From NCBI GenBank assembly GCA_002308795.1, contig DBVV01000068.1, positions 1,076-49,412 of the forward strand: a stretch of DNA of 48,337 bases, read 5' to 3'. The notes under the pieces were generated by a model. The model was not told where the DNA came from, did no database searches, and was given only the letters and a program-made list of their open reading frames with translations. The position numbers and the translations under genes were made by a program. The DNA is from Mageeibacillus sp. UBA1255. GTDB taxonomy: Bacteria; Bacillota; Clostridia; UBA1212; UBA1255. Below are positions 1-40,472 of the stretch, piece after piece; within the stretch, counting starts at the first letter, position 1; every line of letters starts with the position of its first letter.

Positions 1-389
1 CGGTACATCTGGTTGCGCATGTCGTAGGATATGTGCTGCGCGATCCAGTTGTTCAGATAGTTCTGCCCTACGCCGATCAGGTTCGATCCCAGGTGCAGCG
101 CTAGGGAGATCACGATCAGCCTGATCAGCGCGGCGATGCCGCTGCCGATCCAGCCGCCCATGTCCTTGCCCGTGAGCACGTCCACGATGCTGCCCGTCAG
201 GATCGACGGGAACAGGCTGCACACCGACGCTACCGCTATACAGGCGAGCACCAGCGCCAGCTGCTTCCAGTACGGCCGTATATACGAGAATATCCGCGCG
301 AGCAGCTCCTTTGTGACCTTCGGGGTATTCTTTTTTTCCTCGTCCGTGAGGTAGCTCCCCCTGCCGCCTCTTCCGCCGGGTCCCTGCAT
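1..389 (-). CDS. ABC exporter, N-terminal transmembrane domain (5' part of the gene; continues past the window start)
   Basis: My own reverse-complement translation from the ATG at 389-387, which is preceded by GGAGGAGG. It reads MQGPGGRGGRGSYLTDEEKKNTPKVTKELLARIFSYIRPYWKQLALVLAC...ISYDMRNQMY, a typical N-terminus of MsbA-type ABC exporter membrane domains. The ORF is open to the window edge, so it is missing from the ORF track. Confidence 0.75.
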   Translation of the reverse strand, partial: MQGPGGRGGRGSYLTDEEKKNTPKVTKELLARIFSYIRPYWKQLALVLACIAVASVCSLFPSILTGSIVDVLTGKDMGGWIGSGIAALIRLIVISLALHLGSNLIGVGQNYLNNWIAQHISYDMRNQMY

Positions 390-437
390 GGCCCCTCCTC
401 CTTCCGTCCGTTTCCGCCGTCCCTTTTCACCGCAGCG

Positions 438-1193: not shown

Positions 1194-1302
1194 GACCGCT
1201 CAATCCCTTCCGGCTCGTATTCGCCGCACAAGTGTACCACAAACGCGATAAAAAAATCAATCGCGGAAGAGCCCCGTCCCGCGCCTTCGAACGTCCGTTC
1301 GC

Positions 1303-1330
1303 TTGATTTTCCCGCAGGTTATGGTACAAT
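1303..1330 (+). promoter_or_regulatory. Sigma-70-type promoter for the TerB/ATPase/helicase operon
   Basis: TTGATT (1303-1308), a 16-nt spacer, then the extended -10 TGgTACAAT (1322-1330). It sits in a short AT-rich island inside a GC-rich region, 35 nt upstream of the RBS GGGAGG and the ATG at 1365. Confidence 0.6.
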
Positions 1331-1364
1331 ATAATGGGTGAATGAGCGGACGGGAGGTTGGAGC

Positions 1365-9715: not shown

Positions 9716-12019
9716 ATGAAAAAGAAATCAGTCAGAATACTCGTTATTGTCACCGGCCTGGTTATCGCAGCCGGGCTGATCGCGGGATGCGTTTCCGCGA
9801 ACAAGAGAACGACCGATGCCGCTCACGTCCACGCAGACGGTGACGCGATATTGAAATATATATCCGAAACCAATCTCTGCAAAGTATATTCTTCAAAAGA
9901 CAGACTCGAGGGCAATACCGTCGTTCTGGAAACAACAGATTATTCCGAAGATCCTTTCGCTTTCTTTAACTACGAAGGCTACGTGCGCTCGCTCGGATTC
10001 GAACCCGTATCCGCAGACGACTACAAAGTGATCGTTATAAAAGCAAAACAGGAGAACTGTTCAAACATCGAGTTTGAACTGTTTTACGCGGCAGGGAGCG
10101 TTCAGGGCGCGCAGGGAGACGCGAGCAGATCCGTATCATTCGATAACTCTACAGAAGACTGGCAGTATCTTATATTTGATCTCACGTCGGAAAACTTCCA
10201 CGGTACGGTCCACGGATTCAGGTTCGATTTCATGCGTTTTGCATCCTCCGCTGGAGAAAAATTCAGCATTGCCTCTATCACGTTCCTGAAAAACACTGCG
10301 GAAGCTGCTAAATTTATCACTTCTCAGAACGGGCCCGATCCCCATCTGCTCTCGGATAAGCAGCAAAAAGCAGCTGATGCTTTGCTTAAAACGGTATCTT
10401 TATCTGAGCCGGAGAATAAAAAACAGATCGCCCCGGGAGAAGATCCGTCTATCGATCTGTGGTTCGATCACACTTACACAAAAACTCCTGCCGAGTCGAC
10501 AAAATCAAGCGGGCGGCACACTTATAAGATGTATCTGGCGAAAAACGAGATAGAAGACTGCCAGTTTTTATTGTCGTCGACTTCCGACCGTGAAGGGCTT
10601 ACCGCCAGGATCACACCGTTCGTTAACGGCAAGGGCGAAACGCTTCGCACCGAGCTGTATTACGGCTATTATTTCGATGACGTTCAGGGAAAATCGATCG
10701 TCGATCCGATACCGAGGCTCGACGCACCGTTCTCATTGACCGCGAACAGAAGCAAGCTGTTTATTATTAAATTGTTTACGGAAGAGAGCAGTCAGGCGGG
10801 CGATTATACTGCAGAGTTAAGTATTATTGACTCCGACGGTACGGAACTGAAAAAAGCGACGGTCTACGCGTACGTGTATGATTTTGCGCTTCCTGAGGCG
10901 ACAACGTGCAAGACCCAGATGGATCTGTCGTGGTGGGCGGTATACGTGAATCACGAATTGTATGAAGGCGACGACGGTCTGATGTACAAAAAATACTATG
11001 ATCTGCTGCTTGAGAACCGCGTCTGCGCGTACACCCTCCCCTACAGCGATAACGGCGCATACGAAGATCCGCGCGTTCGTGAATACGTCGCTAACCCGAG
11101 AGTCGTGGCATTTAACCCAATCGGATGGAAAGTCGATCCGACGGTCGAAAACGTGAGTTCGGCGTACAGATACCTTTCTCAGAACCCCGAATGGCTCAAT
11201 AAAGCGTACTTTTATCACGTCGACGAACCCCTTTCGATGGAGGCGCTGAATCAGGTCAATTCAGAGGGTAAGCTGTTCGCGGACAATTTCCCGGGCTACC
11301 ACTATCTCGTGCCCATACACTATGACATGGCTCTCGATCAGGAGAGTAAGACGGACTTTTTCGAATACGTAAGTCAGTACGTGAATTCATGGTGCCCGCA
11401 TACGTTTTTCTATAACACGCTTGCTGATTACAAGCGAAATCCGATGCTTACTTACCGTGTAGGAGGTATGCTGGAAAAGAATCTGGGGACTTTCCCGGAG
11501 CGTATGGCAAAACATCAGTCCGAAGGTGACGACGTGTGGTGGTACGTTACGCGCTACCCTCAGTCGCCCGAGATCACGGTGTCAATAGAAACGCAGGCCG
11601 TTCGTTACCGCATCCTGTTCTGGCAGCAGAAACTGTACAACGTAAATCATTTCCTGTACTATCTTGTCAACGACTGGTTCCCGTCAACTGACGCGGCGGG
11701 AAATCCGGATTTCGGCTGGAATTCGAAGCATGAACAGGCTTCCGGGGCTACTCCGTATGACATCTACGGTAACGGCGTTCTGGTATACGCAGGTCATTAT
11801 ATCGGCGTAGAAGAACCGATCGGCTCCCTTCGCTTAGAATGCATACGTGACGGTATCGAGGACTTTGAGTACCTGACGCTGTTTGAGCAGCTTTACGGTT
11901 CTGATAAGCTGGAGCTGGTTATCAAGCAGGTCACCACGTCTTTAGGCGAGTACACTACCGACGAAGAGGTGTTCACCCGCATCCGCTGCCTGCTGGGCAT
12001 GCTGATCGAGGCGAAGTGA
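9716..12019 (+). CDS. Secreted lipoprotein-like DUF4091-domain protein (GH123-like putative glycoside hydrolase)
   Basis: Signal peptide with LIAGC. The C-terminal LECIRDGIEDFEYL segment is one I associate with DUF4091, the catalytic region of GH123 beta-N-acetylgalactosaminidases. The N-terminal region looks like a beta-sandwich. The family call is from memory only. Confidence 0.55.
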   Translation: MKKKSVRILVIVTGLVIAAGLIAGCVSANKRTTDAAHVHADGDAILKYISETNLCKVYSSKDRLEGNTVVLETTDYSEDPFAFFNYEGYVRSLGFEPVSADDYKVIVIKAKQENCSNIEFELFYAAGSVQGAQGDASRSVSFDNSTEDWQYLIFDLTSENFHGTVHGFRFDFMRFASSAGEKFSIASITFLKNTAEAAKFITSQNGPDPHLLSDKQQKAADALLKTVSLSEPENKKQIAPGEDPSIDLWFDHTYTKTPAESTKSSGRHTYKMYLAKNEIEDCQFLLSSTSDREGLTARITPFVNGKGETLRTELYYGYYFDDVQGKSIVDPIPRLDAPFSLTANRSKLFIIKLFTEESSQAGDYTAELSIIDSDGTELKKATVYAYVYDFALPEATTCKTQMDLSWWAVYVNHELYEGDDGLMYKKYYDLLLENRVCAYTLPYSDNGAYEDPRVREYVANPRVVAFNPIGWKVDPTVENVSSAYRYLSQNPEWLNKAYFYHVDEPLSMEALNQVNSEGKLFADNFPGYHYLVPIHYDMALDQESKTDFFEYVSQYVNSWCPHTFFYNTLADYKRNPMLTYRVGGMLEKNLGTFPERMAKHQSEGDDVWWYVTRYPQSPEITVSIETQAVRYRILFWQQKLYNVNHFLYYLVNDWFPSTDAAGNPDFGWNSKHEQASGATPYDIYGNGVLVYAGHYIGVEEPIGSLRLECIRDGIEDFEYLTLFEQLYGSDKLELVIKQVTTSLGEYTTDEEVFTRIRCLLGMLIEAK

Positions 12020-12240: not shown

Positions 12241-12498
12241 GTGAGCCAAAAAGATAAGTTGATAGCAAAACTACGTTCAAAGCCAAAAACGTTTACGTTT
12301 GATGAAGCTGAGCTTTTACTCGGGTATCTTTCTTATAGAAAGAGCGATAAAGGTAAAACAAGCGGCTCACGTGTTATGTTCGTAAGCGATGAACATAATT
12401 CCAAAATATTGTTACACAAACCTCACCCAAGAAAGGAACTTTTAGAATATCAGGTAAAGCAGCTATTAGAACAACTGGAACAGGAGGGTCTGATATGA
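12241..12498 (+). CDS. hicA: Type II toxin-antitoxin system, HicA-family mRNA interferase toxin
   Basis: 85 aa with a GTG start. Contains GSRVMF...LHKPHPRKEL, the HicA/YcfA-like signature. ATGA overlap with the downstream HicB gene. Confidence 0.8.
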   Translation: MSQKDKLIAKLRSKPKTFTFDEAELLLGYLSYRKSDKGKTSGSRVMFVSDEHNSKILLHKPHPRKELLEYQVKQLLEQLEQEGLI

Positions 12499-12839
12499 AT
12501 AATATGTTGCAATATAAAGGCTATTTAGGAAGCATTGAATTTTCTGAGGCTGACGGAGTATTTTATGGGAAAGTACAGGGAATTCGTTCTTTGATTTCTT
12601 ACGAAGGTGCTACCGCAAAGGCACTTTTAGAAGACTTCCACGGCGCGATTGACGATTATCTTGAATTATGTGCCGAAAATGGAATTAAACCCGAAACAGC
12701 GTATAAAGGAAGCCTTAATGTACGTCTTGGAACAGATCTTCACAGGCGCGCAGCTATTTTTGCGATCAACCACAGCCAAAGCCTCAACAGTTTTATTGAA
12801 GAAGCTGTACGGGACAAACTTGCGGCATCTAACGGATGA
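12495..12839 (+). CDS. hicB: HicB-family antitoxin with a C-terminal ribbon-helix-helix domain
   Basis: 114 aa. The N-terminal YKGYLGSIEFSEADGVFYGKVQGI is the HicB fold signature. The C-terminal SLNVRLGTDLHRRAAIFAINHSQSLNSFIEEAV is RHH/CopG-like. Confidence 0.8.
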   Translation: MNNMLQYKGYLGSIEFSEADGVFYGKVQGIRSLISYEGATAKALLEDFHGAIDDYLELCAENGIKPETAYKGSLNVRLGTDLHRRAAIFAINHSQSLNSFIEEAVRDKLAASNG

Positions 12840-12852: not shown

Positions 12853-13932
12853 TTGAAACGCAACGATCTGACGATACTTATCAAGCCAGTTTCCGGTCTG
12901 TGTCAACTATCCTGTAAGTATTGTTTTTACAAGGAGTTGGCCGGACTTAACGATATTAGGGAACAATTGATGCAGCCGGAAGTGGCAGACGGACTGATCA
13001 AAAAAGTCGGTGAAATCCTTGCCCCGGGGCAGCAGGTCAATTTCGCTTTTCAAGGCGGCGAACCGCTTCTGGCCGGGCCTGATTTCTACGTATCTTTTTT
13101 CGAAAAAGTAAAGAAAGCAAATATCAAAGCAACGTATCTTTTTCAAACAAACGGGATCGCGTTGACGTCGGAAAAATGTGAAGAATATTTAAAGCTGTTT
13201 AAAGAAAACAACTGCCTGATTGGTCTATCTGTTGACGGCCCGCGAAAAATGCATGATGCAAACCGCATTGACCATAACGGATCAGGTACGTATGATACGG
13301 TCATGCAGGCATACAAATTGCTCAAAAACGCAAATATAGAAGTAAATTTCCTGACAGTACTGTCTAAAGCCGTATTGACTCACCCGAAACTGCTTTACGA
13401 TTTTTACAGAAATTCTGGAATCAAATACGTCCAATTGATCCCGTGCCTTCCTCCTCTTAACGAAACAGAAAGAAAAGATAATAAATACAGCATGCTTCTT
13501 GCAGCATTCTGGATCCAATTTTATGATTTGTGGAAAAAGGATTTTTTAAGCGGAAAAAGCTATTTTGAAGTCAGAGAGTTCTCTGCCATTCTAAGCGGTC
13601 TTTCAGGGAAGCGTGTCGAAACGTGCATTTTCCCCGGAAAATGCAGCCCTCAGCTAGTTGTAGAGGCAGACGGAAGCACTTATCCGTGTGACTTTTATGT
13701 ACTCCCGCAATATCGAACCGGATCAGTATTGTCCGATTCACTCGAAGACACTTTACGCTCAGTCAATATGTTAAGATTCGCAAAAGATAACCCGCCCCTG
13801 CAGTCACAGTGCCTGCAATGCAGGTACAGCGTTTTATGCAAAGGCGGGTGCAGACGAATGCGTCAGCTTTGGCAAAGTGATCCGGAGAATTGTGCTATGA
13901 GGCTATTCCTGGACCACATTTGCGGCAATTAA
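12853..13932 (+). CDS. Anaerobic sulfatase-maturating enzyme (radical SAM/SPASM, anSME)
   Basis: TTG start. The CQLSCKYCFY radical SAM cluster motif, FQGGEPLL, the SPASM cysteines (YPCDFYV, CLQCRYSVLCKGGCRR) and end-to-end resemblance to clostridial anSME as I remember it. A Cys-type sulfatase is encoded 8 kb away. Confidence 0.8.
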   Translation: MKRNDLTILIKPVSGLCQLSCKYCFYKELAGLNDIREQLMQPEVADGLIKKVGEILAPGQQVNFAFQGGEPLLAGPDFYVSFFEKVKKANIKATYLFQTNGIALTSEKCEEYLKLFKENNCLIGLSVDGPRKMHDANRIDHNGSGTYDTVMQAYKLLKNANIEVNFLTVLSKAVLTHPKLLYDFYRNSGIKYVQLIPCLPPLNETERKDNKYSMLLAAFWIQFYDLWKKDFLSGKSYFEVREFSAILSGLSGKRVETCIFPGKCSPQLVVEADGSTYPCDFYVLPQYRTGSVLSDSLEDTLRSVNMLRFAKDNPPLQSQCLQCRYSVLCKGGCRRMRQLWQSDPENCAMRLFLDHICGN

Positions 13933-15602
13933 TATTCTTCTTTTTTCAAACGGTAAACTACGATTGCAAAGGCCGCAACAATGAGTACGACCAAAACAAA
14001 TGCAAATACGACAGGCGTATCCCCTGTTCCCGGATTCGTCGGTTCAGTCGTCTGTGCAGGCTCGTTCGTAGGTGTAGCTTCGGTTTCCTCAGTAACAACA
14101 GGTTCCGTTGTAGCTTCAGGTGCCGTCGTAGGTTCAGGTTCTGTCGTAGTTTCCGGCTCTGTCGTAGCATTTTCAGTTGGTTCTACTGCTTCAGTCTTTT
14201 CATAAAACGTGATCTGAGAGAAGGCAATCGCATTTGTATTACCCATGTATGCAAGATATACATTGCCGCTGTAATCAGTGTCAAGCGGTAATATGATCGT
14301 CTCGGCGGTACGGAAATCATCCTTGGCACCGACTTCTTTTGCCTCATCCAGAGACCAGAACGCCAGCTTGTTGATCCCTTCCCGCTCGACCTGTTTATTA
14401 TCGGTCGTATCCAATGAACCGGTAGAAGTAAGCGCAAAATTGACGCTTTCCGGAGTTAAAGTCCGAGCATTGCCGCAGGCCGCATCCCACCAGGTTATCG
14501 CCACACGGTCATACTTGCTCAGATCGATCGTCCCGAGATCAACAGCCATTCCGCCGCTGTTTCTAAAGTACACAAATGTGTCCATAGTCGGGAAACAACG
14601 CTTGGTGCTTTCGCCGCCCGTGAGCAGGCCGAGATTACCCGAACCATATTTCTTCATGCCTGTAGCAAGAACTTTCAGCGATTCCGAATAAACCGAGATC
14701 GCCTTATAGCACGTGCCGCTGACATTTCTGTGGCCAAATGCCACGCGTCCGTTTACTGCAGCCAGCGCATCCGTGACGGTCAATTTCTCTTCACCATCAG
14801 CGTCCGAAACGACAACATCCTTATAATACTGGGCATGGATCGGGACGTCAACATTTCCCGGAGCAGTCTCAAGCGCATCGTCGTACGTAGTTACGTTGCT
14901 GTACGAAATAACCGCTTTCACTTCGCCGTCAACATAAAACCGTACCGAACCCTTTCCGTTATCATAACAGGTAAATGTATGATAATCAGATGCCAGTGTT
15001 CCCTCGCCTTCGGCGTATGCGTCAATAAGTACGGCTTTAGTATTTACATGCCTGTCTTTCTCCGCATCAAAGCTCTTAACTGAAACCTGTATCTGGTGGT
15101 CATTATATACTCTGAAAGATATACCGCTTCCGCCTACACCTGAGCCCGCTCCAGAGCCATCCGTTTCGTACCAGTTCATCGTAGTTCCGTTTCGTTTAAG
15201 CACCTGTGAACCGCGAACAAACAGGTAATTATGGCCTTTTTCTCCGAATTTGCCGGTATATGAAACAGCATATGCTTCATCAGGACCAAAGAAGACATTT
15301 TTCAGCTCAACGGAGGAGTACTTATCAAACTGTACGAAATTACCGTCTGACGCCGTCTTAACTGCCGCGCTTCCTCCTCCGGCAAGGATCACAGACCAGT
15401 TATCCGCAAAAGCGGTCTCTGCCAAAGCAGCGTCTTGTGATTCACTGCTGAAATCATTTGCTGCAACGGTGTACATTAATGATATAATATCAGAAACATC
15501 CGCATCATTGCCGGATCCTTTGGCAGAAAAAGCCATCGCTCCTGATAATCCGATCACTACAAGCAGACATATCAGCCTGCATAATAATAGTCTTTTTTTC
15601 AT
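13929..15602 (-). CDS. Secreted LamG-like + beta-sandwich protein with a Pro/Thr/Glu linker and C-terminal membrane anchor (paralog 1)
   Basis: ORF 13929..15629. The ATG at 15602 (MKKRLLLCRLICLL...) aligns with the paralog 2 start and follows AGAGAGG. It has a signal peptide, the LamG-like YDNGKGSVRFYVDGE, a second domain (IDLSKYDRVAITWW...DTDYSGNVYLAY) and TEPETTTEPEPTTAPE repeats. The C-terminus has a hydrophobic helix followed by RLKKEEY. Confidence 0.8.
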   Translation of the reverse strand: MKKRLLLCRLICLLVVIGLSGAMAFSAKGSGNDADVSDIISLMYTVAANDFSSESQDAALAETAFADNWSVILAGGGSAAVKTASDGNFVQFDKYSSVELKNVFFGPDEAYAVSYTGKFGEKGHNYLFVRGSQVLKRNGTTMNWYETDGSGAGSGVGGSGISFRVYNDHQIQVSVKSFDAEKDRHVNTKAVLIDAYAEGEGTLASDYHTFTCYDNGKGSVRFYVDGEVKAVISYSNVTTYDDALETAPGNVDVPIHAQYYKDVVVSDADGEEKLTVTDALAAVNGRVAFGHRNVSGTCYKAISVYSESLKVLATGMKKYGSGNLGLLTGGESTKRCFPTMDTFVYFRNSGGMAVDLGTIDLSKYDRVAITWWDAACGNARTLTPESVNFALTSTGSLDTTDNKQVEREGINKLAFWSLDEAKEVGAKDDFRTAETIILPLDTDYSGNVYLAYMGNTNAIAFSQITFYEKTEAVEPTENATTEPETTTEPEPTTAPEATTEPVVTEETEATPTNEPAQTTEPTNPGTGDTPVVFAFVLVVLIVAAFAIVVYRLKKEEY

Positions 15603-15690
15603 TGTCAGACCTCTCTTTATGTTCGTCATTAACGAGCGGGCAACCCCAGAGTTACCCGCATCTCAAGCTATCAGTCCTGTCCAAAAAAGA

Positions 15691-15867
15691 TCAATCTGTT
15701 ACTTTTGAAAACAGTTCAACAGTAGGCAATCCGATTGTGCTGTCCTCTGTGTCCGTTTCAGGGAAAACATGTCTTAAAATATGATCCGGTGTACTTAATG
15801 TAAGCACATCATCGTCCGGGAGATAAACTACTGAAATCTCCGGTTCTTCATAGATTCTTTTTTTCAT
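15691..15867 (-). CDS. Small acidic hypothetical protein (58 aa)
   Basis: The ATG at 15867 lies 7 nt after a strong GGGAGGA RBS. Sequence: MKKRIYEEPEISVVYLPDDDVLTLSTPDHILRHVFPETDTEDSTIGLPTVELFSKVTD. It lies between paralogs 2 and 1 on the same strand. Confidence 0.5.
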   Translation of the reverse strand: MKKRIYEEPEISVVYLPDDDVLTLSTPDHILRHVFPETDTEDSTIGLPTVELFSKVTD

Positions 15868-15880
15868 AATTATCCTCCCA

Positions 15881-18211
15881 TTACTGTAATGAATCGACAT
15901 AATTCTGTGCTGCGTATCCGTACTTCATCAGTGCTTTAAGCAACGCCACAAGATTTGCATCGCTGCTGTTATTGATTGTTTCGTATGCATAAGACTCAAC
16001 GCTGTATGTAAGCACGTTGCTGACCTGCTGCGCACCAACATAAGCAGTGAATGTAATCGCTTCGCTCATTTCGGAAGCGTCAAATTCCTCAAAATACAAC
16101 GTATAGCAGTTGTCCCCTTCGGCGAAATCGTCGGCGGTATATTCTGTTATAACATTGCCCTTTTGTGCCTTAATAACCAGTCCTTCGGTGCTTGCGGCAG
16201 TAAATTTGACGCGCATAACAACAGAATTTCTAAGGATGAGTCCCACTGCAGTCCATTCAACATCCGGATCAGCTATCGTGTTTCCAATTCCATAAACAGA
16301 ACTAAGTACTGGATCAGTCGCTGTCCCGCAGTTCGCCTGCGCTGGAGTGAGATCACTGTTTACAAGGTTATCTGTATGGTAATTCGTATATGTCTGGCAC
16401 GCTGCACCGTAATTCAGCAGATCGACAAGCATCGTCTTGAATTCCGGACTGTTGTTTGCATAAGCGCCGTCGATCATTCCGTAGCAATACGATGCGATGC
16501 TGTACTCGATAGGCGCACTCGCGTATTCCACACCGTTCTGCGTCCCGAAAAGCGTGGCCGTAACTGCGTCGTTCATATAATGCGGGGCAATATGGTCAAA
16601 CGTGAAAACGTATTTGTCGCCGGAAGGTCTGCCTTCGACAATGTATTCTTTCCCGTGCATATTGAATCTCGCGTACACGTTATCAAACACGTTGTCAATT
16701 ATTGAACTGGACGTTTTGAAATTGATCGAGATATCGTTTTCCAGCGACAGAGAAGCAGCGGTAAAGCGGAGTGTCGAAGATTGTGCTGCTTTTTTATAGA
16801 AAGTGATCTGAGAAACAGCTATTCCTGTGTGATTTCCCATATACGCCAGATAAACATTACCGCTGTATGACGTATCAAGTGGAAGAATTATAGTCTCAGC
16901 AGAACGGAAATCTTCTTTAGCCGTTATCGTTTTGCTTTCCGGTAAAGACCAGTATGTCAGTTTGTTGACGCCTGCCTGCTCTACCCGTGGATCAGCAGTA
17001 GTATCGAGTGTACCCGTCGAAGTAAGTGCAAAATTAACGGTGCCTGCAGCTAAAGTACGCGGATTGCCGTAGGATGCATCCCACCACGTTATCGCCACAC
17101 GGTCATATTCACTCAAATCAATGTTCCCGATCGTAGCAGCCATTCCGCCGGTGTTTCTGAAATACACAAATGTATCGATGGACGGGAAGCAGCGTTTCTT
17201 ACTTTCATTGCCTGTGAGTTTTGAAAGATTCCCTGCTCCGTACTTCTGGGCATTCCGCATGGGTATTTTAAGAGTATCAGAATATACTGTTATATCTTTA
17301 TAACATGCCGCGGTAACGTTCCTGTGGCCAAACGCAACGCGTCCGTTTACAGCGATAAGCGCATTGGTAACAGTCAATTTTGATGTTCCGCCAGCATCAT
17401 ATACGACTGCATCTTTATAGTACTGTGCATGAATCGGGTCCGGGTTCGGGTTATTATCATCTTGCTGAGAGGTCTCATATGCGTCATCAGGGTACGTTGT
17501 AATATTGCCGTATTCAACAGATGCTTTCAGCTCTCCGTCGATGTAAAACTGGACTGTACCTTTTCCGTTATCATAGCAGGTATATGTATGATATGTTGAC
17601 ACAAGTGTGCCTTTCCCTTCAGCGTAAGCATCTATCAATACAGCACTAGTATCCACATGCCTGCTTATGCTCGAGTCATATTTTTTCACGGAAACCTGTA
17701 TCTTGTCATTATCGTAAACTCGAAAATATATTCCGCTCCCGCCAACGCCTGAACCGGCACCGGAACCATCCGCTTCATACCAGTTCATTACAGTACCATT
17801 GCGTTTAAGCACCTGCGTACCGCGAACGAACAAGTAATTATGTTTTTTCTCGCCGAATTTTCCCTGATATGAAACGGCATACGCTTCATTCGGGCCAAAG
17901 TAGATATCCTTCAGTTCCAGCGCCGAATACTTATCGAACTGTACGTAATTTCCGCCCGTTTCGGATTTTATGACCGCTGTTCCGCTCCCGGCAAGGATCA
18001 CTGACCAATCATCTAAAAAAGACGTCCCGGTCAACGGTGTGTCTGCCGCCTCTGAATCAAAATCGCTTGCCGCCAGAACATCCATTCCGGAAAGGATGTC
18101 GGAAAGAGACCCCGAGTTTCCGGATCCGGTGGCAAAAACGGTGGCTGATCCAGTCAGCACAATCACCAGCAGAAGACAAATCAGTCTGTACAACACAACC
18201 TTACTTTTCAT
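15881..18211 (-). CDS. Secreted LamG-like + beta-sandwich protein with an internally duplicated C-terminal module (paralog 2)
   Basis: 776 aa with a signal peptide. By eye, the first ~470 aa are roughly 70% identical to paralog 1. The C-terminal ~290 aa contains two related modules (LRFTAASLSL...LLNYGAACQTY and MRVKFTAAST...LMKYGYAAQNY). There is no membrane anchor. The RBS GGAGGA lies in the 3' end of the paralog 3 gene. Confidence 0.85.
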   Translation of the reverse strand: MKSKVVLYRLICLLLVIVLTGSATVFATGSGNSGSLSDILSGMDVLAASDFDSEAADTPLTGTSFLDDWSVILAGSGTAVIKSETGGNYVQFDKYSALELKDIYFGPNEAYAVSYQGKFGEKKHNYLFVRGTQVLKRNGTVMNWYEADGSGAGSGVGGSGIYFRVYDNDKIQVSVKKYDSSISRHVDTSAVLIDAYAEGKGTLVSTYHTYTCYDNGKGTVQFYIDGELKASVEYGNITTYPDDAYETSQQDDNNPNPDPIHAQYYKDAVVYDAGGTSKLTVTNALIAVNGRVAFGHRNVTAACYKDITVYSDTLKIPMRNAQKYGAGNLSKLTGNESKKRCFPSIDTFVYFRNTGGMAATIGNIDLSEYDRVAITWWDASYGNPRTLAAGTVNFALTSTGTLDTTADPRVEQAGVNKLTYWSLPESKTITAKEDFRSAETIILPLDTSYSGNVYLAYMGNHTGIAVSQITFYKKAAQSSTLRFTAASLSLENDISINFKTSSSIIDNVFDNVYARFNMHGKEYIVEGRPSGDKYVFTFDHIAPHYMNDAVTATLFGTQNGVEYASAPIEYSIASYCYGMIDGAYANNSPEFKTMLVDLLNYGAACQTYTNYHTDNLVNSDLTPAQANCGTATDPVLSSVYGIGNTIADPDVEWTAVGLILRNSVVMRVKFTAASTEGLVIKAQKGNVITEYTADDFAEGDNCYTLYFEEFDASEMSEAITFTAYVGAQQVSNVLTYSVESYAYETINNSSDANLVALLKALMKYGYAAQNYVDSLQ

Positions 18212-20003
18212 TGTTATTCCTCCTGTTTTTGTTCAATACAACAATTGCTATAGCCGCTATTGCAATGACGCCGGCTGCTATGGCAATGATAGTAATAACA
18301 GTTCCGTTTTTAGGCTTTTCATTCTTCGGGGCTTCGGTCGCTGCAGGAATATCTGTCGTCTCTGCAATATCCGTTGTTTGAGGTATTTCTGTAGTTTCAG
18401 TCTGCGTGGCAGTTTCCGTCGGACCGGCAGTTACTGCAGAATCGGTCTTTTCAGGCGCTGCTGTAACGTCAGGCTGCTGTGTTGTCTCCGGAGAAGCAGC
18501 ATCAGTAGCAGCTGTTTCCGCGGATTCGGTCACCTGAGGCTCGGGAGTCTGTTTCCCCGATTCAAGATAAACCGCCAGATCATCCAGATAATTGTCAGAA
18601 CCGCTGGTCTTCCTGAAGCCGATCGCTATCATACCCTCTGTAGAAAGTCTGGAATTATTAACTGTCGCAAGAACGTCTCCGTACGCGTTTTTAACTGTGA
18701 CAGTTTTGTAGAAAGGAAACGATTCGTCATCTGCCGGATCATCGTAATTGACCGGTTCCGCATAATCGACAATGGCAAACAGTGCGCCGTCAACATAATA
18801 CTTGATGGTCCCTTTTCCATTATCGTAAATAATGTAGTCGTGGAATGAACTGCCTACATCTGCTTTGACCGGAATATTGACGACGCGGGCGGCAATGTGT
18901 ACGCCGTCTACCTCGTATGTTTTGATTATCAGCGAAATGGCATCGTTGCTGTTGCCCTTCGTCAATGCGATACCACTCGCGCCGATCGTACCGCCTATTG
19001 CACCCTCAGCAGCTCCGCCGTTTTCCGTATACCAGTCTTTTTCATACCAGCCTATACTGGCTTCCTTCCAAGCGGGATTTTCTCTGATCACTGGTTCGGT
19101 GCCACGAACAAAGAAGCAGAACTTCGATGCTCCGATCAAAGCACGGAAAGAAAAGACGTATGCGTTATCTTCCATAACATCCAGATAATTTGTCTGGAAA
19201 TAGTTTTCTGAGTTGATTACCGCATACTTTTCCCCTTTTTCGTCTTCATGCACCAGGATCTGCGGTCCGCGGTCTACTCCCCAATACGTGTTAAACTCAC
19301 CCATATTATTACCGTCAGTTCCGTCATCTTCGTCTTCAAAATCGATGATACTGGCAAGTTCAAAACCTGGCAGATCTTCCCACGTTTCCACCGGCCTCGT
19401 TTCGATCTTATTGACGCAGTTAAAAACGATTTTTGAGACGACGAGAGAGTCAACTACAGGCGAACCGTTATTGTCCCGGACAATAGATCCGTATGCGAGA
19501 TACACGTCTCCGGAATAATCCGTATCCAATGTGATCGTAACTATCTGCTCACCTGAACCCCAGCGGCCCGGAGGCGCCGTAAGTTCTGCTTTGCCGATTA
19601 TTTTGGCGCTTTCTATAGGCGTGATGCCTTCCGTTTTATTTCCGGATGCAACCGGTCCGTTTGACGTTAGAGCAAGATATGCCTTTCCGCTCGAATTAGT
19701 AAATACCGCATTTGCACTTGATCCCACGTTGATAACGACTTTTTCGTATTTGGAAAGATCAAAGTTGCCCAGATAAATGTAACCGCACGCAGTCACCTGA
19801 AGGACCCAATGACCTTCGTTATACAATGCATCAGGGTATCCGTTTCTAACTGTAACCGCGTTTGATTCACCGTCAAGTTTTTCTATATCTATTTCCAGAT
19901 CCTCCGCGGATGTGGAAGCAAATATCGGGCAAAGCTGCATCGTCAATAATATTGCTGTTATCAAGCTCAAAGCACAGATTCTTTTAAGCAGGTGTTTTAT
20001 CAC
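18201..20003 (-). CDS. Secreted protein with the same two domains in swapped order, a Thr/Pro-rich linker and a C-terminal membrane anchor (paralog 3)
   Basis: GTG start 7 nt after AAGGAGGG. The N-terminal FDLSKYEKVVINV...DTDYSGDVYLAY domain is followed by the LamG-like YDNGKGTIKYYVDGA. Then come TETATQTETTEIPQTTDIAETTDIP and the helix ITIIAIAAGVIAIAAIAIVVL with an NKNRRNNNEK tail. Confidence 0.85.
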   Translation of the reverse strand: MIKHLLKRICALSLITAILLTMQLCPIFASTSAEDLEIDIEKLDGESNAVTVRNGYPDALYNEGHWVLQVTACGYIYLGNFDLSKYEKVVINVGSSANAVFTNSSGKAYLALTSNGPVASGNKTEGITPIESAKIIGKAELTAPPGRWGSGEQIVTITLDTDYSGDVYLAYGSIVRDNNGSPVVDSLVVSKIVFNCVNKIETRPVETWEDLPGFELASIIDFEDEDDGTDGNNMGEFNTYWGVDRGPQILVHEDEKGEKYAVINSENYFQTNYLDVMEDNAYVFSFRALIGASKFCFFVRGTEPVIRENPAWKEASIGWYEKDWYTENGGAAEGAIGGTIGASGIALTKGNSNDAISLIIKTYEVDGVHIAARVVNIPVKADVGSSFHDYIIYDNGKGTIKYYVDGALFAIVDYAEPVNYDDPADDESFPFYKTVTVKNAYGDVLATVNNSRLSTEGMIAIGFRKTSGSDNYLDDLAVYLESGKQTPEPQVTESAETAATDAASPETTQQPDVTAAPEKTDSAVTAGPTETATQTETTEIPQTTDIAETTDIPAATEAPKNEKPKNGTVITIIAIAAGVIAIAAIAIVVLNKNRRNNNEK

Positions 20004-20006
20004 GAT

Positions 20007-21104
20007 TTAACCCTCCTTGAAATTACGGTCAATATACTCGACCAGGTCTTGTACATAATTTGTCATTATCGCCGTGTCTCTAGCGGTAGAGAATTCGCTA
20101 AACACTTTTTGCTTTTCGTCTTCGGAAATACATTCACGCTCCAGCGATCCTGCATGTCTGCGTGTGTAAAAATACGGGCCGGTCTTTCCGAAGCGTTCCA
20201 GCATCTCTTTTCTGATCGAATCGACCATATCTTCCGGCATTTTGTATGCAAAAGAAAACGCTTCATAACATCCGGTCTCACATATGATTTTGTATATCGA
20301 AGGCCATTCTTCTGCAGGATTCATCTTATCCATTATGAAAAACGCTTTTCCGTCACATACTTTCAGTACTTCTTCAAGTGTCGGTATCTGATATTCAGTT
20401 ATGCACCCTTCTCTGAATTTTCTGCCTGCCTTCAGTCGGAGTTCTCTTAATTCATCATATGTCCAGTCGCTTAAATTATCTGATTCCGGAAGTCCGTTTT
20501 TCCCTTTTTTTAATGTCCAGTCGGTAGTCTGATGCAGGGTACTCCAATGCATCAGCACGATCCGTTTGTCTTTTGTATACCGGAAATCCAGTTCCATGAT
20601 ATCAGCGCCCATTTGTATGGAACTTATGATTGCTTCGATCGAATTTTCCGGATAATAATCGCCGCCTCCACGATGTGCCCAGCAAAAAGGTCTGTTCTTT
20701 TTAGGGAATGATTCTACTTTTTCTCTATAGTCCAGAAGCCATGACGGCGGAGTCCAAATATACTTCCAGACCGGAATAAAACGGGAACAATCCTGAATAT
20801 ATTGTTCCCGTTTCGGAAAAGCAAAAGCAGTATTTAGTTCCTCAAGAGTATATGTACGATCGGACAATTCACATTTCCAGATATATGAAAGAGCAAGATA
20901 TAACATTTCACCGTTAGACGCTTTGATATTAATTGCGCCGTCGCGGCAAATAATGTCATACCCTTTGAAAGCCTGCTCTTCGATCTTCTGACTACGGGTC
21001 AGCGTCACTTCCACAGGTAAACTGTTTATTATTTCAATGCATAATTCACTGTATTCCTTGGGATCAAAATTCTCAATAAACAGTTTTTCCCAGGCAAGAA
21101 TCAT
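20007..21104 (-). CDS. Glycerophosphodiester phosphodiesterase (GDPD) family protein, no signal peptide
   Basis: CWAHRGGGDYYPENSIEAIISSIQMGADIMELDFRYTKDKRIVLMH is the GDPD catalytic signature (HR...E...E.D...H). I prefer the ATG at 21104; the ORF track starts at the TTG at 21119. Confidence 0.75.
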   Translation of the reverse strand: MILAWEKLFIENFDPKEYSELCIEIINSLPVEVTLTRSQKIEEQAFKGYDIICRDGAINIKASNGEMLYLALSYIWKCELSDRTYTLEELNTAFAFPKREQYIQDCSRFIPVWKYIWTPPSWLLDYREKVESFPKKNRPFCWAHRGGGDYYPENSIEAIISSIQMGADIMELDFRYTKDKRIVLMHWSTLHQTTDWTLKKGKNGLPESDNLSDWTYDELRELRLKAGRKFREGCITEYQIPTLEEVLKVCDGKAFFIMDKMNPAEEWPSIYKIICETGCYEAFSFAYKMPEDMVDSIRKEMLERFGKTGPYFYTRRHAGSLERECISEDEKQKVFSEFSTARDTAIMTNYVQDLVEYIDRNFKEG

Positions 21105-21125
21105 ATCCTCTCCCCCCAAAGCAGG

Positions 21126-22067
21126 TTAATTATAACTTTTCCCTGCTCCCTCGTCTAATTCTATTTTGTTGCAGTTTGTATTACAAAAATTTATATCTTC
21201 ATAGATGTTTTTTAGTTCTTGAAACAGATCCGGATATGCAAATCCGGGACGGCAAATAAAATGAATACTGCGATCCATATTGACACCCTCCAGCGGCAGC
21301 GCAACAAGTTTGCCCTCGTTTATCTCTGCCTGGCAGGCGGCTACCTGCAGTATCGATATTCCTACATTGCCCTCGACAAGTTTTTTAATTACTTTCAGGC
21401 TGTTCGTTTCGACCACGACATTCAGATCGTCTGCCCTGAGTGACCCTTTTTGAAGTTCTTCATCCAGGACCTGCATCGCATAATTATTTTTATAGCAAAG
21501 GATCATTTTTTCTTTTTTAAACTGCTCAAAAGTGATCTTTTTCTCGTTTGCGAGAGGATGGTCAGGCGATACTATAACACGGCTTTTGTCTTTACAAAGC
21601 GGATATACGTTAAATCCTTCCGGCGCGGGATAATTGATAAGCACCCAATCTAATTCACAATCGATAAGTTTTTTTATAAGAGTCTTCCTGGAGTCACAAT
21701 ATATATCCAGCGTCAGATCGGGATGTTTCTGGCAATATACTGCCATGATGCCTGACAATATATTTTCTGCCAGGGTTATTGTTACACCTATTGAGAAGTG
21801 ACACGGTTTCTCCGCCATGACCCGAATATCGGACAAGAACGTATTTTCTATCGAGCGGGATTTCTCGGCATATTCGACGAGACGCATTCCGGCATCGGTA
21901 AGCCTAATATTTTTCCCGTTCTTTTCAAAAATACGGATCCCGTATTCTGTTTCAAGCTGTTTGATATGATGACTAACTGCAGGCTGAGTCAATGCAAGTT
22001 CGTTGGCCGAGCGCGTGAAATTTTTCGTTTGTGCTACGCTTAATAACGTTTTTAACCGTACGTCCAT
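21126..22067 (-). CDS. LysR-family transcriptional regulator
   Basis: The N-terminal wHTH FTRSANELALTQPAVSHHIKQLE is followed by a substrate-binding domain of typical length. The gene is on the same strand as the surrounding operon and embedded in it. Confidence 0.9.
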   Translation of the reverse strand: MDVRLKTLLSVAQTKNFTRSANELALTQPAVSHHIKQLETEYGIRIFEKNGKNIRLTDAGMRLVEYAEKSRSIENTFLSDIRVMAEKPCHFSIGVTITLAENILSGIMAVYCQKHPDLTLDIYCDSRKTLIKKLIDCELDWVLINYPAPEGFNVYPLCKDKSRVIVSPDHPLANEKKITFEQFKKEKMILCYKNNYAMQVLDEELQKGSLRADDLNVVVETNSLKVIKKLVEGNVGISILQVAACQAEINEGKLVALPLEGVNMDRSIHFICRPGFAYPDLFQELKNIYEDINFCNTNCNKIELDEGAGKSYN

Positions 22068-22084
22068 CAAAAATCACCACCGTT

Positions 22085-23503
22085 TTATATTTTAAGATTT
22101 TCTTCCAGATGTATTTGTGCCGCCCATTGTCTGCTGACCAGACAGAACGGGTCTCCTTCCAGGCATAAGATCTCAAGCAATCTTGCCCGGAGCGATCCTA
22201 TCACTTCGGTAAGGGCAGGTTCGTGTATTAGATTATTGATTTCCCACGGATCGTCGCACAAGTTATACAGTTCATCGGTATCCGTGGCATTCCATATATA
22301 TTTCCACTGATCTGTTTTGATACAGCGCTGAGTGAATAGCCCGAACTGTGCGCCATTCAGCGAAGAAACCGCCTCATTTCGTTCTCCGGACATGCCCGAA
22401 AGAACGTCTACAAAACTGATCCCGTGAAGCCCTGTGCCGCTCGGGTCAATATGATTTAGTTCCATGAGCGTCGGTCCCAGATCCAGATTGTGCATCGTAT
22501 ATGCTCCGGTTCTCCGGGGCACGTGTCGGCAAGTACCGTTTGCCGGTTTTACGATAAGCGGGACATGGATAACATCTTCGTAAAGCACATAATGCTTATC
22601 AAACATTTTATGATCCCCGCACATATCTCCGTGGTCGGAAGTGAATACTATAGTCGTATCGTCTTTTATTCCCAGATCTTTTAGCGAACCGATCATCTGT
22701 CCTATGTGATGATCCAGCTCCGAGATCTGGGCATAATATTTGCGAACTATCGGTTCCCAATCTTCCCAGGACTTGCTTCCGTTTTTCCAGTTGAAGATCT
22801 GCTGCCTCTGAATGTATGGCTTGCCTGCCAGCGGATCATCGAAGCCTCCCCACTTCAAAGCGCGATCATACATCTCGTAGAAACTTCGATGCGGCCTGTA
22901 AGGAGGATGGGGACTTGAAAAACACACTGTCATAAAGAACGGATCCGGACCCGTTTTCACCGCATTTTTGATTTCTTCTATTGCACACGCAGCCGTGAAT
23001 CCCGTCGGTGTTTCCGAGATATCACATTCATCTACCCAACCTTCAACCAGGTGTTTTCGTTCTTTGCAGACGCAGCTTTCTCCGTGTAAAAGCCGGTATT
23101 CCTCCCACGTGTCTCTTTGCCGAACATAGCCGTATTCAGTGCAGTCGTGTAAAGGGTTCAGTTCGGAGCGGCCTATGTGGATAGTGTTATACCCCGCTTC
23201 TCTAAAATCACGTACAAAAGAATAATCTTCGACAGGCAAGCCGCCGATAGGCATTGTTACATCATAATTCCAGTAAGAGCCGAAACTCTCGCTCCTTTTA
23301 CAGGCGTAGAAACTTTGCCTGGCCGGACAACATGTGGGAATCGACGTATACGCATTTTCGAAAAATGTACTTTCTTCCGCCAGAGCGTCAAGATTCGGCG
23401 TTAGTACCGGGATCTCATTCGAAAAGCCCATGCAATCGTATCTGAATTGGTCGGCGACAATTATTAAAACGTTCTTTTTTGGTTCTTCATTCATAGCAGT
23501 CAC
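22085..23503 (-). CDS. Cys-type sulfatase (formylglycine-dependent), apparently cytoplasmic
   Basis: LIIVADQFRYD, the sulfatase signature PTCCPARQSF (C-x-P-x-R), and DHGDMCGDHKM. I see no signal peptide. The start is either the GTG at 23503 (GTGA overlap with the upstream stop) or the ATG at 23494. Confidence 0.85.
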   Translation of the reverse strand: MTAMNEEPKKNVLIIVADQFRYDCMGFSNEIPVLTPNLDALAEESTFFENAYTSIPTCCPARQSFYACKRSESFGSYWNYDVTMPIGGLPVEDYSFVRDFREAGYNTIHIGRSELNPLHDCTEYGYVRQRDTWEEYRLLHGESCVCKERKHLVEGWVDECDISETPTGFTAACAIEEIKNAVKTGPDPFFMTVCFSSPHPPYRPHRSFYEMYDRALKWGGFDDPLAGKPYIQRQQIFNWKNGSKSWEDWEPIVRKYYAQISELDHHIGQMIGSLKDLGIKDDTTIVFTSDHGDMCGDHKMFDKHYVLYEDVIHVPLIVKPANGTCRHVPRRTGAYTMHNLDLGPTLMELNHIDPSGTGLHGISFVDVLSGMSGERNEAVSSLNGAQFGLFTQRCIKTDQWKYIWNATDTDELYNLCDDPWEINNLIHEPALTEVIGSLRARLLEILCLEGDPFCLVSRQWAAQIHLEENLKI

Positions 23504-24825
23504 TCATAGTTATATTTTGTGCTGATCCACTGTACACATTCATACGGATGATCCGTGAGCAGATTATTTCCCGCTTTATAGTATTGACCGAAGAAACTGT
23601 TCAGTTCGGTTTGTGTTTTTAACGTGATATCTTTTGACAGATCTCCCGTGTGTTTACGTGAATAATAATTCAGCGAAACAGGCAGTCCGTCTGAGGCCAT
23701 CTGCCTGCGGTAAGGTTCAAGATCTGCATCCGCGTCTTTAAAACTTTTGCCGAAAAGAAAATTCTGGGTGCTTTCGGTTTCTTTAAGGACTTTGTAAATA
23801 TCGTCCCAGTATTTGAGACAGTCGATCTTATCGAGATTGACAAAGATCCGGTTCCTGCACACTCTCATAACTTCTTTCAAAGTCGGGATCTTGTACGGTG
23901 TGATCTCGCCGGTTTCAGAAGAATATTGCCCGTAATTGAAACGCAAATTAAGTTCCAGCAGCTGTTCGTAGGTCCAACCGGCAACTTTCTGACTTTTGGG
24001 CAGGCCGTTCTTTCCTTTCTTTTCTGCCCAGTCAGTACATTCGTTCAAATCGCCGTGCATCAATATCAGCACGTCATCTTTTGTGCGCTGTATATCTATT
24101 TCGATAATATCGCAGCCCATTTTGATAGAACTGATAATGGATTCGATCGAATTCTCGGGATAGAATTGCAGACCGCCTCTGTGAGCGGTACACATCATGC
24201 GGCCTTTGGCTGTAAACGAATTTTGCTTTTCATTAAAATCCAGCATCCACGCCGGAGGTGTCCATTGATATTGCCACACCGGGGTAAAAAGTTCGATGTT
24301 TTTTATATAATCTTCTCTGTTAACTCTTTTTTCGGATATTCCCAGCGCTTGTATATTTTCAGATGTGACCCGAGCCGGATCACCGGAAAAATAATCATAT
24401 TTCAGGCGCATCGAAGCCAGATAGATCAGATCCGTGCTTGAAGCGGTGATACTGATCTCATCATTGCCGAACAATATGCTGTATCCATCCTGTGCGGCAT
24501 CCGTGTTTATATATATCGACAATATTCCATCCTGGCTTGAATTCTGTGATAATTGATCCAGCTCTGTAACCGTATAACTTGCCGCGAAAAAGTTCTTAAG
24601 TTCTTCCGCTGCTTTTGTTTCATATATTGATGGTTCTTCGGACAATACAAACACACATTTTGTATATTTATCCGGTTGCGGTGTCTTACTATTATCGTTT
24701 GTCGAAACAGGCGAGGTATTTTCATCAGGCGTTATTGGTTTTACTCCGTGCGAGCAACTGACAGTCATAGCGCAAATAACGATAATAACAATCAAACAAA
24801 GCATTCTCTTTGTCAAACCATTCAC
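23500..24825 (-). CDS. GDPD-family phosphodiesterase lipoprotein
   Basis: Signal peptide with the lipobox MTVSC. CTAHRGGLQFYPENSIESIISSIKMGCDIIEIDIQRTKDDVLILMHGD. It shares a pre-catalytic segment (TPVWQYQWTPPAWMLDF) with the other GDPD (IPVWKYIWTPPSWLLDY). The RBS is GGGAGGTGA. Confidence 0.8.
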   Translation of the reverse strand: MNGLTKRMLCLIVIIVICAMTVSCSHGVKPITPDENTSPVSTNDNSKTPQPDKYTKCVFVLSEEPSIYETKAAEELKNFFAASYTVTELDQLSQNSSQDGILSIYINTDAAQDGYSILFGNDEISITASSTDLIYLASMRLKYDYFSGDPARVTSENIQALGISEKRVNREDYIKNIELFTPVWQYQWTPPAWMLDFNEKQNSFTAKGRMMCTAHRGGLQFYPENSIESIISSIKMGCDIIEIDIQRTKDDVLILMHGDLNECTDWAEKKGKNGLPKSQKVAGWTYEQLLELNLRFNYGQYSSETGEITPYKIPTLKEVMRVCRNRIFVNLDKIDCLKYWDDIYKVLKETESTQNFLFGKSFKDADADLEPYRRQMASDGLPVSLNYYSRKHTGDLSKDITLKTQTELNSFFGQYYKAGNNLLTDHPYECVQWISTKYNYE

Positions 24826-24851
24826 CTCCCGATCCGAAAGTATCCGAGAGA

Positions 24852-24880
24852 ATTATATTTTAGAGCCGCTGCACTGTCAA
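24852..24880 (-). promoter_or_regulatory. Consensus sigma-70 promoter of the GDPD-sulfatase-LamG operon
   Basis: The minus strand reads TTGACA, 17 nt, TATAAT (both hexamers perfect). The -10 box ends about 25 nt upstream of the ATG at 24825. Confidence 0.75.
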
Positions 24881-24936
24881 ATTACAATTTTTTTGGATGG
24901 CAATAAATACTATTTAATACTTTCTTGATAATAAAT

Positions 24937-40416: not shown

Positions 40417-40472
40417 CAGGATCCCTCCGGTCAAAATCGGTTAGAATTCTTGGCGGTCTTCCGTCTTTTAAT

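Follow-up and report, generated by a model that had tools for sequence, protein, structure and literature searches.

The 48,337-nt stretch of DNA analysed here (the window), from contig DBVV01000068.1 of Mageeibacillus sp. UBA1255, contains a cassette of about 12 kb in which genes for two enzymes of the glycerophosphodiester phosphodiesterase (GDPD) family, a sulfatase-family enzyme, a LysR-type regulator and three secreted proteins are packed in one direction and face a convergent gene for a radical-SAM enzyme of the anaerobic sulfatase-maturating type (anSME). We read this locus as a mobile catabolic island, controlled by LysR and belonging to anaerobic gut Clostridia, that would process an organic ester substrate in two compartments, and we put the probability of this reading at roughly 0.55. 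It is carried by conservation of the cassette, in fixed gene order, across unrelated flanking contexts, and by adjacency or outright fusion of GDPD-family and sulfatase genes across phyla.

Gene content, conservation and spread of the cassette

The features of the cassette, in window positions, are as follows.

24888..24909, minus strand: candidate LysR operator, a dyad TATTTAT-N8-AAAAAAA in T-N11-A register, with its centre some 20 nt upstream of the -35 hexamer
24852..24880, minus strand: sigma-70-type promoter TTGACA-17-TATAAT, the sole 12/12 match in the 48-kb window
23500..24816, minus strand: GDPD1, lipoprotein GDPD-family enzyme with an N-terminal alpha/beta domain (Pfam GDPD, 72 bits)
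22085..23494, minus strand: cytoplasmic Cys-type S1 sulfatase-family formylglycine hydrolase with G-R-S-E for G-K-x-H (Pfam Sulfatase, 128 bits)
21126..22070, minus strand: LysR-type regulator inside the operon (HTH_1, 68 bits; LysR_substrate, 119 bits)
20007..21104, minus strand: GDPD2, cytoplasmic GDPD-family phosphodiesterase with an N-terminal domain as in GDPD1 (Pfam GDPD, 78 bits)
18201..20003, minus strand: surface paralog of 600 aa, with signal peptide, domain resembling a carbohydrate-binding module (CBM), ConA-like beta-sandwich, Pro/Thr (PT)-rich stalk and C-terminal transmembrane (TM) segment
15881..18211, minus strand: secreted paralog of 776 aa, with signal peptide, beta-sandwich, CBM-like domain and two C-terminal repeats of about 150 aa
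15691..15867, minus strand: 58-aa open reading frame (ORF) with conserved N-terminal motif, variable C-terminus and strong ribosome-binding site GGGAGG
13929..15602, minus strand: surface paralog of 557 aa, with signal peptide, ConA-like beta-sandwich, CBM-like domain, PT-rich stalk and TM segment
12853..13932, plus strand: convergent radical-SAM/SPASM enzyme, anaerobic sulfatase-maturase type (TIGR03942, PRK13758)

The eight minus-strand ORFs, from 24825 to 13929, all run in one direction, and the plus-strand ORF at 12853-13932 converges on them. Counted from the promoter, the gene order is GDPD1, sulfatase, LysR, GDPD2, 600-aa paralog, 776-aa paralog, 58-aa ORF and 557-aa paralog, with successive intergenic gaps of 5, 14, 21, 3, -11, 13 and 88 nt; the last of these genes overlaps the maturase gene by 4 nt. 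A first-pass annotation, made from the sequence of the window alone, had described eight packed minus-strand ORFs behind a perfect promoter and a maturase converging on the operon end. All of the genes it claimed are present, and its gene order is right for seven of them but not for the 58-aa ORF, which it placed last and which lies between the second and third paralogs. A Shine-Dalgarno sequence is recognisable for every cassette gene but the sulfatase, which is probably translationally coupled to GDPD1 because it starts only 5 nt past that gene.

The perfect TTGACA-17-TATAAT arrangement occurs once in the window, against 0.01 occurrences expected from shuffled sequence. Eight orthologous loci have the same -35 hexamer and almost the same -10 hexamer, at an unchanged distance from GDPD1. 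A terminator-like hairpin belonging to the upstream htpG gene precedes the operon promoter. Alignment of nine cassette promoters shows conservation of TTGACA, of the T[GA]TAAT before it and of the -10 hexamer; upstream of the -35 region the dyad TTTAT-N7-C-N-AAA alone is conserved, with nothing farther upstream. Recognition sites of LysR-type regulators have the T-N11-A form and lie upstream of the promoter, as this dyad does. We infer that the dyad at 24888-24909, within its AT-rich surroundings, is a candidate site for the embedded LysR, itself the most conserved protein of the cassette.

Every contig that is long enough and carries a close homolog shows one and the same cassette order: GDPD1, sulfatase, LysR, GDPD2, a 600-type surface protein, an optional 641/776-type protein together with a small ORF, a 557-type protein and the convergent radical-SAM gene. 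Identity to the window proteins is 73-76% for LysR, 68-70% for the sulfatase, 66-70% for GDPD2, 61-65% for the maturase, 55-61% for GDPD1 and 53-63% for the surface proteins. This same cassette recurs in at least four unrelated flanking contexts, one of them a mobile element. In the window it is flanked by htpG and a HicAB pair, elsewhere by pheT and rpoB (several metagenome-assembled genomes, MAGs), by transposase, integrase and relaxase genes (loci L009 and L010) or by other genes again (L016 and L019). The cassette has 41-48% GC, against about 50% in its flanks. The surface-protein family, and with it the cassette, was found in four of 185,579 species (one genome each), all of them MAGs of Clostridia/Oscillospiraceae; the records of two of the four name water-deer rectum and water-buffalo caecum, that is, ruminant hindgut. 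By gene order, composition and context the cassette is a conserved, horizontally mobile unit. Synteny in related Clostridia, suggested earlier as a check on the locus, gives a strongly positive result: the cassette genes always co-occur, the opposite of never being found together.

A divergent variant at locus L022, with a sulfatase 59% identical to that of the window, keeps the GDPD-sulfatase-LysR-GDPD series and the radical-SAM gene. The surface proteins encoded there are single-domain relatives, 392 and 386 aa long; also present are a TetR regulator and a transporter of the major facilitator superfamily (MFS) distantly related to the GPH family. The variant supports import of a small, possibly glycosidic, product.

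Coupling of GDPD-family enzymes to sulfatases

A metagenome scan with the GDPD alignment returned 80 loci, whose ORFs were searched with hidden Markov models (HMMs) and clustered at 70% identity, giving 23 informative lineages. An S1 sulfatase lies no more than 500 nt away from the GDPD gene, or is fused to it, in seven of the 23, and in GDPD loci containing any sulfatase that sulfatase is always the immediate neighbour. Three loci hold single-ORF fusions, with the GDPD first in L073 (9854-12085) and L081 (251-2602) and the sulfatase first in L087 (438-2651); the L073 and L081 proteins share 77% identity. In these fusions both domains are confirmed by Pfam, signal peptides are present, and the formylglycine motif (CAPSR) and the GDPD motifs (HRGG, PEN and ExD) are intact. 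Since the fusions occur in both domain orders, there were at least two independent fusion events. Such fusions are classic Rosetta-stone evidence, here suggesting a shared pathway.

A group of sixteen loci, many of them human-gut metagenome contigs, represents a polysaccharide utilization locus (PUL) with the order SusC-SusD-sulfatase-sulfatase-GDPD. In Parabacteroides distasonis (L090, 2077-10786) the GDPD of this PUL matches Protein Data Bank (PDB) entry 3mz2 (BDI_3922) with E=7e-196, and one of the sulfatases matches the "mucin-desulfating sulfatase" 7p24 (E=6e-165) and the N-acetylglucosamine-6-sulfatase 5g2v. The partner sulfatases, both in the fusions and in the P. distasonis PUL, are of the ordinary type. 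Because of the adjacency in seven of 23 lineages and the fusions in both orders, GDPD and sulfatase are functionally coupled across phyla, with the coupling not confined to the Gram-positive locus. The linkage between sulfatase and phosphodiesterase that the first-pass annotation saw at one locus thus extends, as adjacency and as fusion, well beyond it. Its statement that the locus is of an undescribed type also stands, in that we found no such locus in the searchable literature, where we likewise found no relevant paper on GDPD-sulfatase pairing, on DUF4996 or on the function of BDI_3922. As a lead only, BT3160, a GH110 listed with the B. theta O-glycan PUL enzymes, would by accession arithmetic lie near the gene for the protein of PDB entry 3i10.

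The same evidence bears on an alternative in which the parts of the cassette share no substrate. The island would then be a co-regulated scavenging unit: deacylated phospholipids or teichoic acid would supply the GDPDs with glycerol-3-phosphate, the sulfatase would independently draw sulfate or carbon from unrelated sulfate esters, and the surface proteins would be general adhesins. GDPDs and arylsulfatases are classic scavenging enzymes, with GlpQ and UgpQ in the Pho regulon and Ats enzymes under LysR control of the CysB/Cbl type; moreover, the pairing of an exported with a cytoplasmic GDPD resembles GlpQ/UgpQ, and the sulfatase subclade is also found without a GDPD. However, the fusions in both orders and the frequency of adjacency favour a shared substrate or pathway, unrelated functions would not be expected to stay together so strictly in a single mobile unit with every part retained, and phosphate and sulfate are probably not limiting in the gut. 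We consider scavenging unlikely.

More broadly, GDPD plus S1 sulfatase may represent an unrecognised cross-phylum two-enzyme module for compounds that bear both a phosphodiester and a sulfate ester and have no known degradation pathway, to which the Clostridial version would add a new family of surface binders and a re-modelled formylglycine enzyme, with Glu for the catalytic His and perhaps a new specificity. We put this forward tentatively, as a possibility that is open to considerable doubt.

Enzymes and surface proteins of the cassette

GDPD1 probably starts at the TTG at 24816, 7 nt downstream of GGAGG, and has a lipoprotein signal whose lipobox Cys is present in every ortholog; GDPD2 has no signal peptide. 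The two are paralogs (38% identity over 333 aa), and both exceed the cutoff of 23.6 bits for Pfam model PF03009, with matches that cover only the N-terminal half of the HMM. In an alignment of 38 GDPD sequences the catalytic and metal-binding positions H144, R145, E171, D173 and H186 are invariant and E153 nearly so, while a clade-specific KKGKNGLP insertion is mostly invariant. An AlphaFold2 (AF2) model of GDPD2 (pLDDT 93.6) has an N-terminal alpha/beta domain, some 95 residues long, and beyond it strands that alternate with helices. Its top Foldseek matches, over about 290 aligned columns, are 3i10 and 3mz2, which are also the best matches of GDPD2 by sequence; both entries have been in the PDB since 2009-2010, and to our knowledge neither has an assigned function. 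Some longer relatives match the NAGLU_N domain PF12971, and a weak PI-PLC-X match was also seen. From the invariant residues and the confident model aligned to solved GDPDs, both cassette enzymes are predicted to be catalytically competent.

Among characterized enzymes, E. coli GlpQ and UgpQ and the B. subtilis teichoic-acid exo-hydrolase GlpQ share the GDPD fold and its catalytic residues. Unlike GlpQ and UgpQ, the cassette GDPDs have the extra N-terminal alpha/beta domain and the KKGKNGLP insertion, and they score far under the GlpQ/UgpQ equivalog cutoffs. In E. coli, GlpQ is periplasmic and UgpQ cytoplasmic. The occurrence of one exported and one cytoplasmic GDPD in a single locus, which had been noted as a puzzle, parallels this arrangement and ceases to be one; in addition, the L022 variant carries a GPH-type importer.

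The sulfatase scores 128 bits against PF00884 (cutoff 25) and also matches SGSH_C; its start is the ATG at 23494 chosen by gene callers, and an exact look-up with a GTG-start version gave no match. Across 120 homologs its formylglycine motif, TCCPARQ (CCPAR), does not vary. The conserved segments ADQFRYD, SSPHPPY and SDHGDMCGDHKMFDKH show that metal ligands and the second His/Lys are kept. In human ARSA, the motif G-K-x-H supplies Lys123 and His125 of the sulfate site. This Lys/His pair is missing from the cassette sulfatase, which reads HIGRSELNP where 6pt4 has GKWHL and 7oz8 has GKMHW. In all homologs down to 49% identity an invariant Glu takes the place of the His, and the Lys position is occupied by R, I, K, V or H; a wider clade at 38-49% identity (Paenibacillus, Cohnella, Treponema, Clostridia) has GKW followed by H, G, D or S. 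The G-R-S-E deviation is noteworthy because a preprint on Bacteroides sulfatases holds the sulfate site to be invariant across S1 (10.1101/2021.07.23.453482). The window sulfatase has no signal peptide, which had also been called puzzling; nothing in this is peculiar to it, as signal peptides are missing throughout its clade in the homologs analysed.

The altered motif raises the alternative that this formylglycine enzyme is a phospho(di)ester or phosphonate-ester hydrolase of the group of phosphonate monoester hydrolases (PMHs) and PehA, and that the island degrades a phosphodiester polymer, for example teichoic acid, with no sulfate involved. PMHs have alterations at the canonical sulfatase Lys/His positions. 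R. leguminosarum PMH and PehA are, like the cassette enzyme, S1-fold formylglycine enzymes with altered Lys/His positions, and such phosphonate-monoester hydrolases and phosphodiesterases appear among its weaker matches (2vqr and 2w8s, E of about 1e-20; PehA, 115 bits against a cutoff of 900); besides, the gene lies between two phosphodiesterase genes in the cassette. However, the cassette sulfatase is only distantly related to PMH and PehA and its substitutions are different. Its best matches are bona fide sulfatases, namely an exo-2S-carrageenan sulfatase, 7oz8 (deposited as a choline-sulfatase) and choline sulfatases; the remaining residues of the S site are kept, and anion binding is possible with Arg replacing Lys. 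A relative 62% identical to it lies beside a GH43-like protein and an MFS transporter, a setting that fits a sulfated glycoside, and the partner sulfatases of the fusions and of P. distasonis are ordinary, one of them near GlcNAc-6-sulfatase. A switch to phosphoester chemistry is, in our estimate, quite unlikely.

The convergent gene encodes a protein matched by both the Radical_SAM and SPASM Pfam domains. Among NCBIfam models, TIGR03942 scores 280 bits (cutoff 349) and PRK13758 scores 269 bits (cutoff 441), both under their equivalog cutoffs; the anSME models are clearly on top, with DynA, the next-best family, at 163 bits. Its cysteines form C-QLS-C-KY-C (CX3CX2C), C-x5-C-x14-C and C-x2-C-x5-C-x3-C...C, a full SPASM set in a pattern that we take to correspond to that of anSMEcpe. 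In every cassette locus with the sulfatase the maturase gene ends the cassette, always in convergent orientation. Directly upstream of it in the window, co-directional and separated by a 13-nt gap, lies a HicA/HicB toxin-antitoxin pair (12241-12839) that is not present in the other cassette contexts; here, transcripts from the HicA/HicB promoter may extend into the maturase gene. Inheritance of sulfatase and anSME as one ancestral module was considered and rejected, the L023 sulfatase being 57% identical to that of the window and its maturase only 34%.

Among the closest described systems is the C. perfringens arylsulfatase with anSMEcpe (PRK13759/PRK13758), again a Cys-type (CxPxR) sulfatase and a neighbouring radical-SAM/SPASM maturase in a Gram-positive anaerobe. 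PRK13759 is the top-scoring NCBIfam model for the window sulfatase (226 bits, well under the equivalog cutoff of 481), and PRK13758 is second only to TIGR03942 for the maturase. Unlike the C. perfringens pair, the window sulfatase has G-R-S-E, and the pair sits in a larger cassette with GDPDs, LysR and surface proteins.

The 58-aa ORF matches no Pfam or NCBIfam family. A 42-aa counterpart occupies the equivalent position in locus L006 (9850-9978); the two share [YF]EE..[IL].[IV]V[YF]....DV[IL]TLS and have unrelated C-termini, with the look of a leader and core. In cassettes with two paralogs the small ORF and the middle paralog are both missing, and the small ORF occurs only with the middle paralog. 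The conserved, leader-like N-terminus and variable C-terminus could mark a substrate for the radical-SAM/SPASM enzyme, acting as maturase of a ribosomally synthesized and post-translationally modified peptide (RiPP), and cyclophane-forming SPASM maturases rank next behind the anSME models. This is the weakest of the alternatives, and we reject it as highly improbable: the anSME models are far ahead of DynA in score, the CX3CX2C motif begins at residue 17 and there is therefore no N-terminal RiPP recognition element (RRE) type of leader-binding domain, the radical-SAM gene and the 58-aa ORF are not adjacent, and cassettes without the small ORF retain both the radical-SAM gene and the Cys-type sulfatase.

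The three large paralogs each have a signal peptide, in agreement with their earlier description as secreted. That they are all membrane-anchored holds for the 600-aa and 557-aa proteins, with their PT-rich stalks and TM helices, but not for the 776-aa protein, which has no anchor. The 600-aa protein contains the two domains common to the other paralogs in swapped order. The C-terminal third of the 776-aa protein (15884-16804) consists of two unannotated repeats, about 150 aa long, which share 26% identity (E=6e-8) and both close with ...L..L..YG.AAQ.Y. Searches of the three proteins against Pfam and NCBIfam, LamG/Laminin_G models included, gave no match. The AF2 model of the 557-aa protein (pLDDT 68) shows a signal helix, two beta-sandwich domains of locally high confidence, a disordered PT-rich stalk and a C-terminal TM helix. 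Foldseek matches to it are generic jelly rolls with low TM-scores (tandem CBM22, calreticulin lectin domain, the Hc of clostridial neurotoxin (BoNT), GH16 and reelin repeats), so no function can be transferred. Of the earlier label "LamG-like", a generic beta-sandwich fold survives, but membership of LamG does not; going by the model, "lectin-like" is reasonable as a description of the fold.

The surface-protein family is small. The 776-aa protein has 19 homologs among 5.8e9 clustered proteins, and a profile search of 1.84e9 representatives returned 80 sequences at E<=1e-3, four of them at E<=1e-30. Distant relatives are mostly single-domain proteins of 350-400 aa; a few of the distant relatives carry dockerin, cohesin, CBM6 or CBM35 modules, which fits extracellular carbohydrate-related roles in Clostridia. 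One distant homolog of 1260 aa, P0019, was set aside as a guide to context, its neighbourhood being unrelated.

PT-rich stalks, TM anchors, the dockerin or cohesin modules of distant relatives and the rank of the paralogs as the least conserved parts of the cassette could also describe a surface or adhesion island, in which the paralogs would serve in adhesion or as components of the envelope and the enzymes would remodel wall polymers of the cell itself. However, GDPD2 and the sulfatase, two of the three enzymes, are cytoplasmic, no wall-biosynthesis genes occur in the cassette, and the embedded LysR and the transporter of the L022 variant fit catabolism better. An adhesion island seems to us very unlikely.

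Proposed pathway, related systems and flanking regions

Under the catabolic reading, two membrane-tethered beta-sandwich proteins and a free one would bind the substrate outside the cell, where lipoprotein GDPD1 would cut a phosphodiester bond. The released fragment would be imported by a transporter encoded elsewhere in the genome or, in the L022 variant, by the GPH-type MFS importer within the cassette. Inside, GDPD2 would cut a remaining phosphodiester and the formylglycine hydrolase would remove a sulfate ester, having been activated by the convergent anSME, which would convert the Cys of CCPAR to formylglycine without oxygen. LysR would sense a compound of the pathway and act at the T-N11-A dyad just upstream of the -35 hexamer. 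Gene content, conserved gene order, mobility, retained catalytic motifs, predicted localisation of the proteins and the cross-phylum coupling of GDPD to sulfatase come directly from the loci and their sequences; the order of the steps, the LysR target and a single substrate carrying both ester types we infer.

The best candidates for the substrate would be sulfated glycoconjugates from host or diet, or lipid head groups, that contain a glycerophospho- or sugar-phosphodiester link. Since the sulfatase and GDPD2 are cytoplasmic, the substrate that reaches them should be small enough for import. The first-pass annotation had proposed a polymer carrying both sulfate and phosphodiester groups. Its conserved co-directional unit, convergent maturase and link between the enzymes have held up, but the dual-ester polymer is not established, given a cassette with neither carbohydrate-active enzyme (CAZyme) nor transporter and with two cytoplasmic enzymes.

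Several observations weigh against the catabolic reading. The window cassette encodes no transporter and no glycoside hydrolase detectable with Pfam or NCBIfam. Co-transcription of its genes is suggested by their spacing only, and every carrier is a MAG or metagenome contig. Lacking the canonical Lys/His, the sulfatase may be a weak enzyme or may catalyse something other than sulfate-ester hydrolysis. Close relatives of this sulfatase occur with a maturase and without a GDPD in L023 and L024, and another in L105 (3913-11407), 62% identical, lies beside the GH43-like protein and MFS transporter already mentioned, again without a GDPD; the sulfatase subclade is therefore not obligatorily tied to GDPDs. 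The L105 enzyme has the motif G-I-N-E, and a glycyl-radical enzyme and its activase lie just upstream of it, under AraC regulators. Conversely, the closest Clostridial GDPD relatives outside the cassette (L027, L035) have no adjoining sulfatase.

The PULs of Bacteroidota resemble the cassette in coupling sulfatases to surface glycan-capture proteins, and that of P. distasonis in coupling a sulfatase to the GDPD subfamily of the window. Pfam and NCBIfam searches found no SusC/D, CAZyme or transporter in the window cassette, the components by which a PUL or Gram-positive PUL (gpPUL) is recognised. Unlike Bacteroidota PULs, the locus has capture proteins of an unrelated, unannotated family in place of SusC/SusD, a cytoplasmic and not a periplasmic sulfatase, a local maturase and not a genome-wide one, and a regulator of LysR type instead of a hybrid two-component system (HTCS) or extracytoplasmic function (ECF) factor. 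The individual parts of the cassette are all of known kinds. What appears undescribed is their mobile combination, the cross-phylum GDPD-sulfatase coupling, the altered sulfatase motif and the unannotated surface-protein family.

Sulfatases gate access in the gut to host and dietary sulfated glycans, and mechanistic knowledge of them comes almost entirely from Bacteroidota. The island would represent a compact, mobile Firmicutes system with its own maturase, regulator and surface capture proteins. Recurrent coupling of GDPD and sulfatase, fusions included, implies a substrate class or pathway missing from current models, and the substrate of the cassette, once identified, would also annotate 3i10 and 3mz2. 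With its altered catalytic motif, the sulfatase subclade could broaden what is known of formylglycine-enzyme chemistry, and the surface proteins would give an annotation handle for a family that has no Pfam model.

Three other regions of the window were recorded. A 767-aa lipoprotein at 9716-12019, with a weak match to a GH123 catalytic domain (E=4.5e-4), adjoins the cassette in this genome only. A 1173-aa ORF on the minus strand at 36913-40434 has no Pfam match. Positions 1-5500 stand out by a GC content of 63-68%, the contig having about 50%, and the genes found there are the following.

1338-3218: TerB-N/TerB-C protein
2984-4543: BrxC/BrxD-like ATPase (PF10923, E=1.7e-163)
4258-6795: DEAD/Helicase_C protein, whose ORF spans the GC transition

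The segment may have been acquired horizontally as a defence-type island, or it may be a chimera of the assembly.

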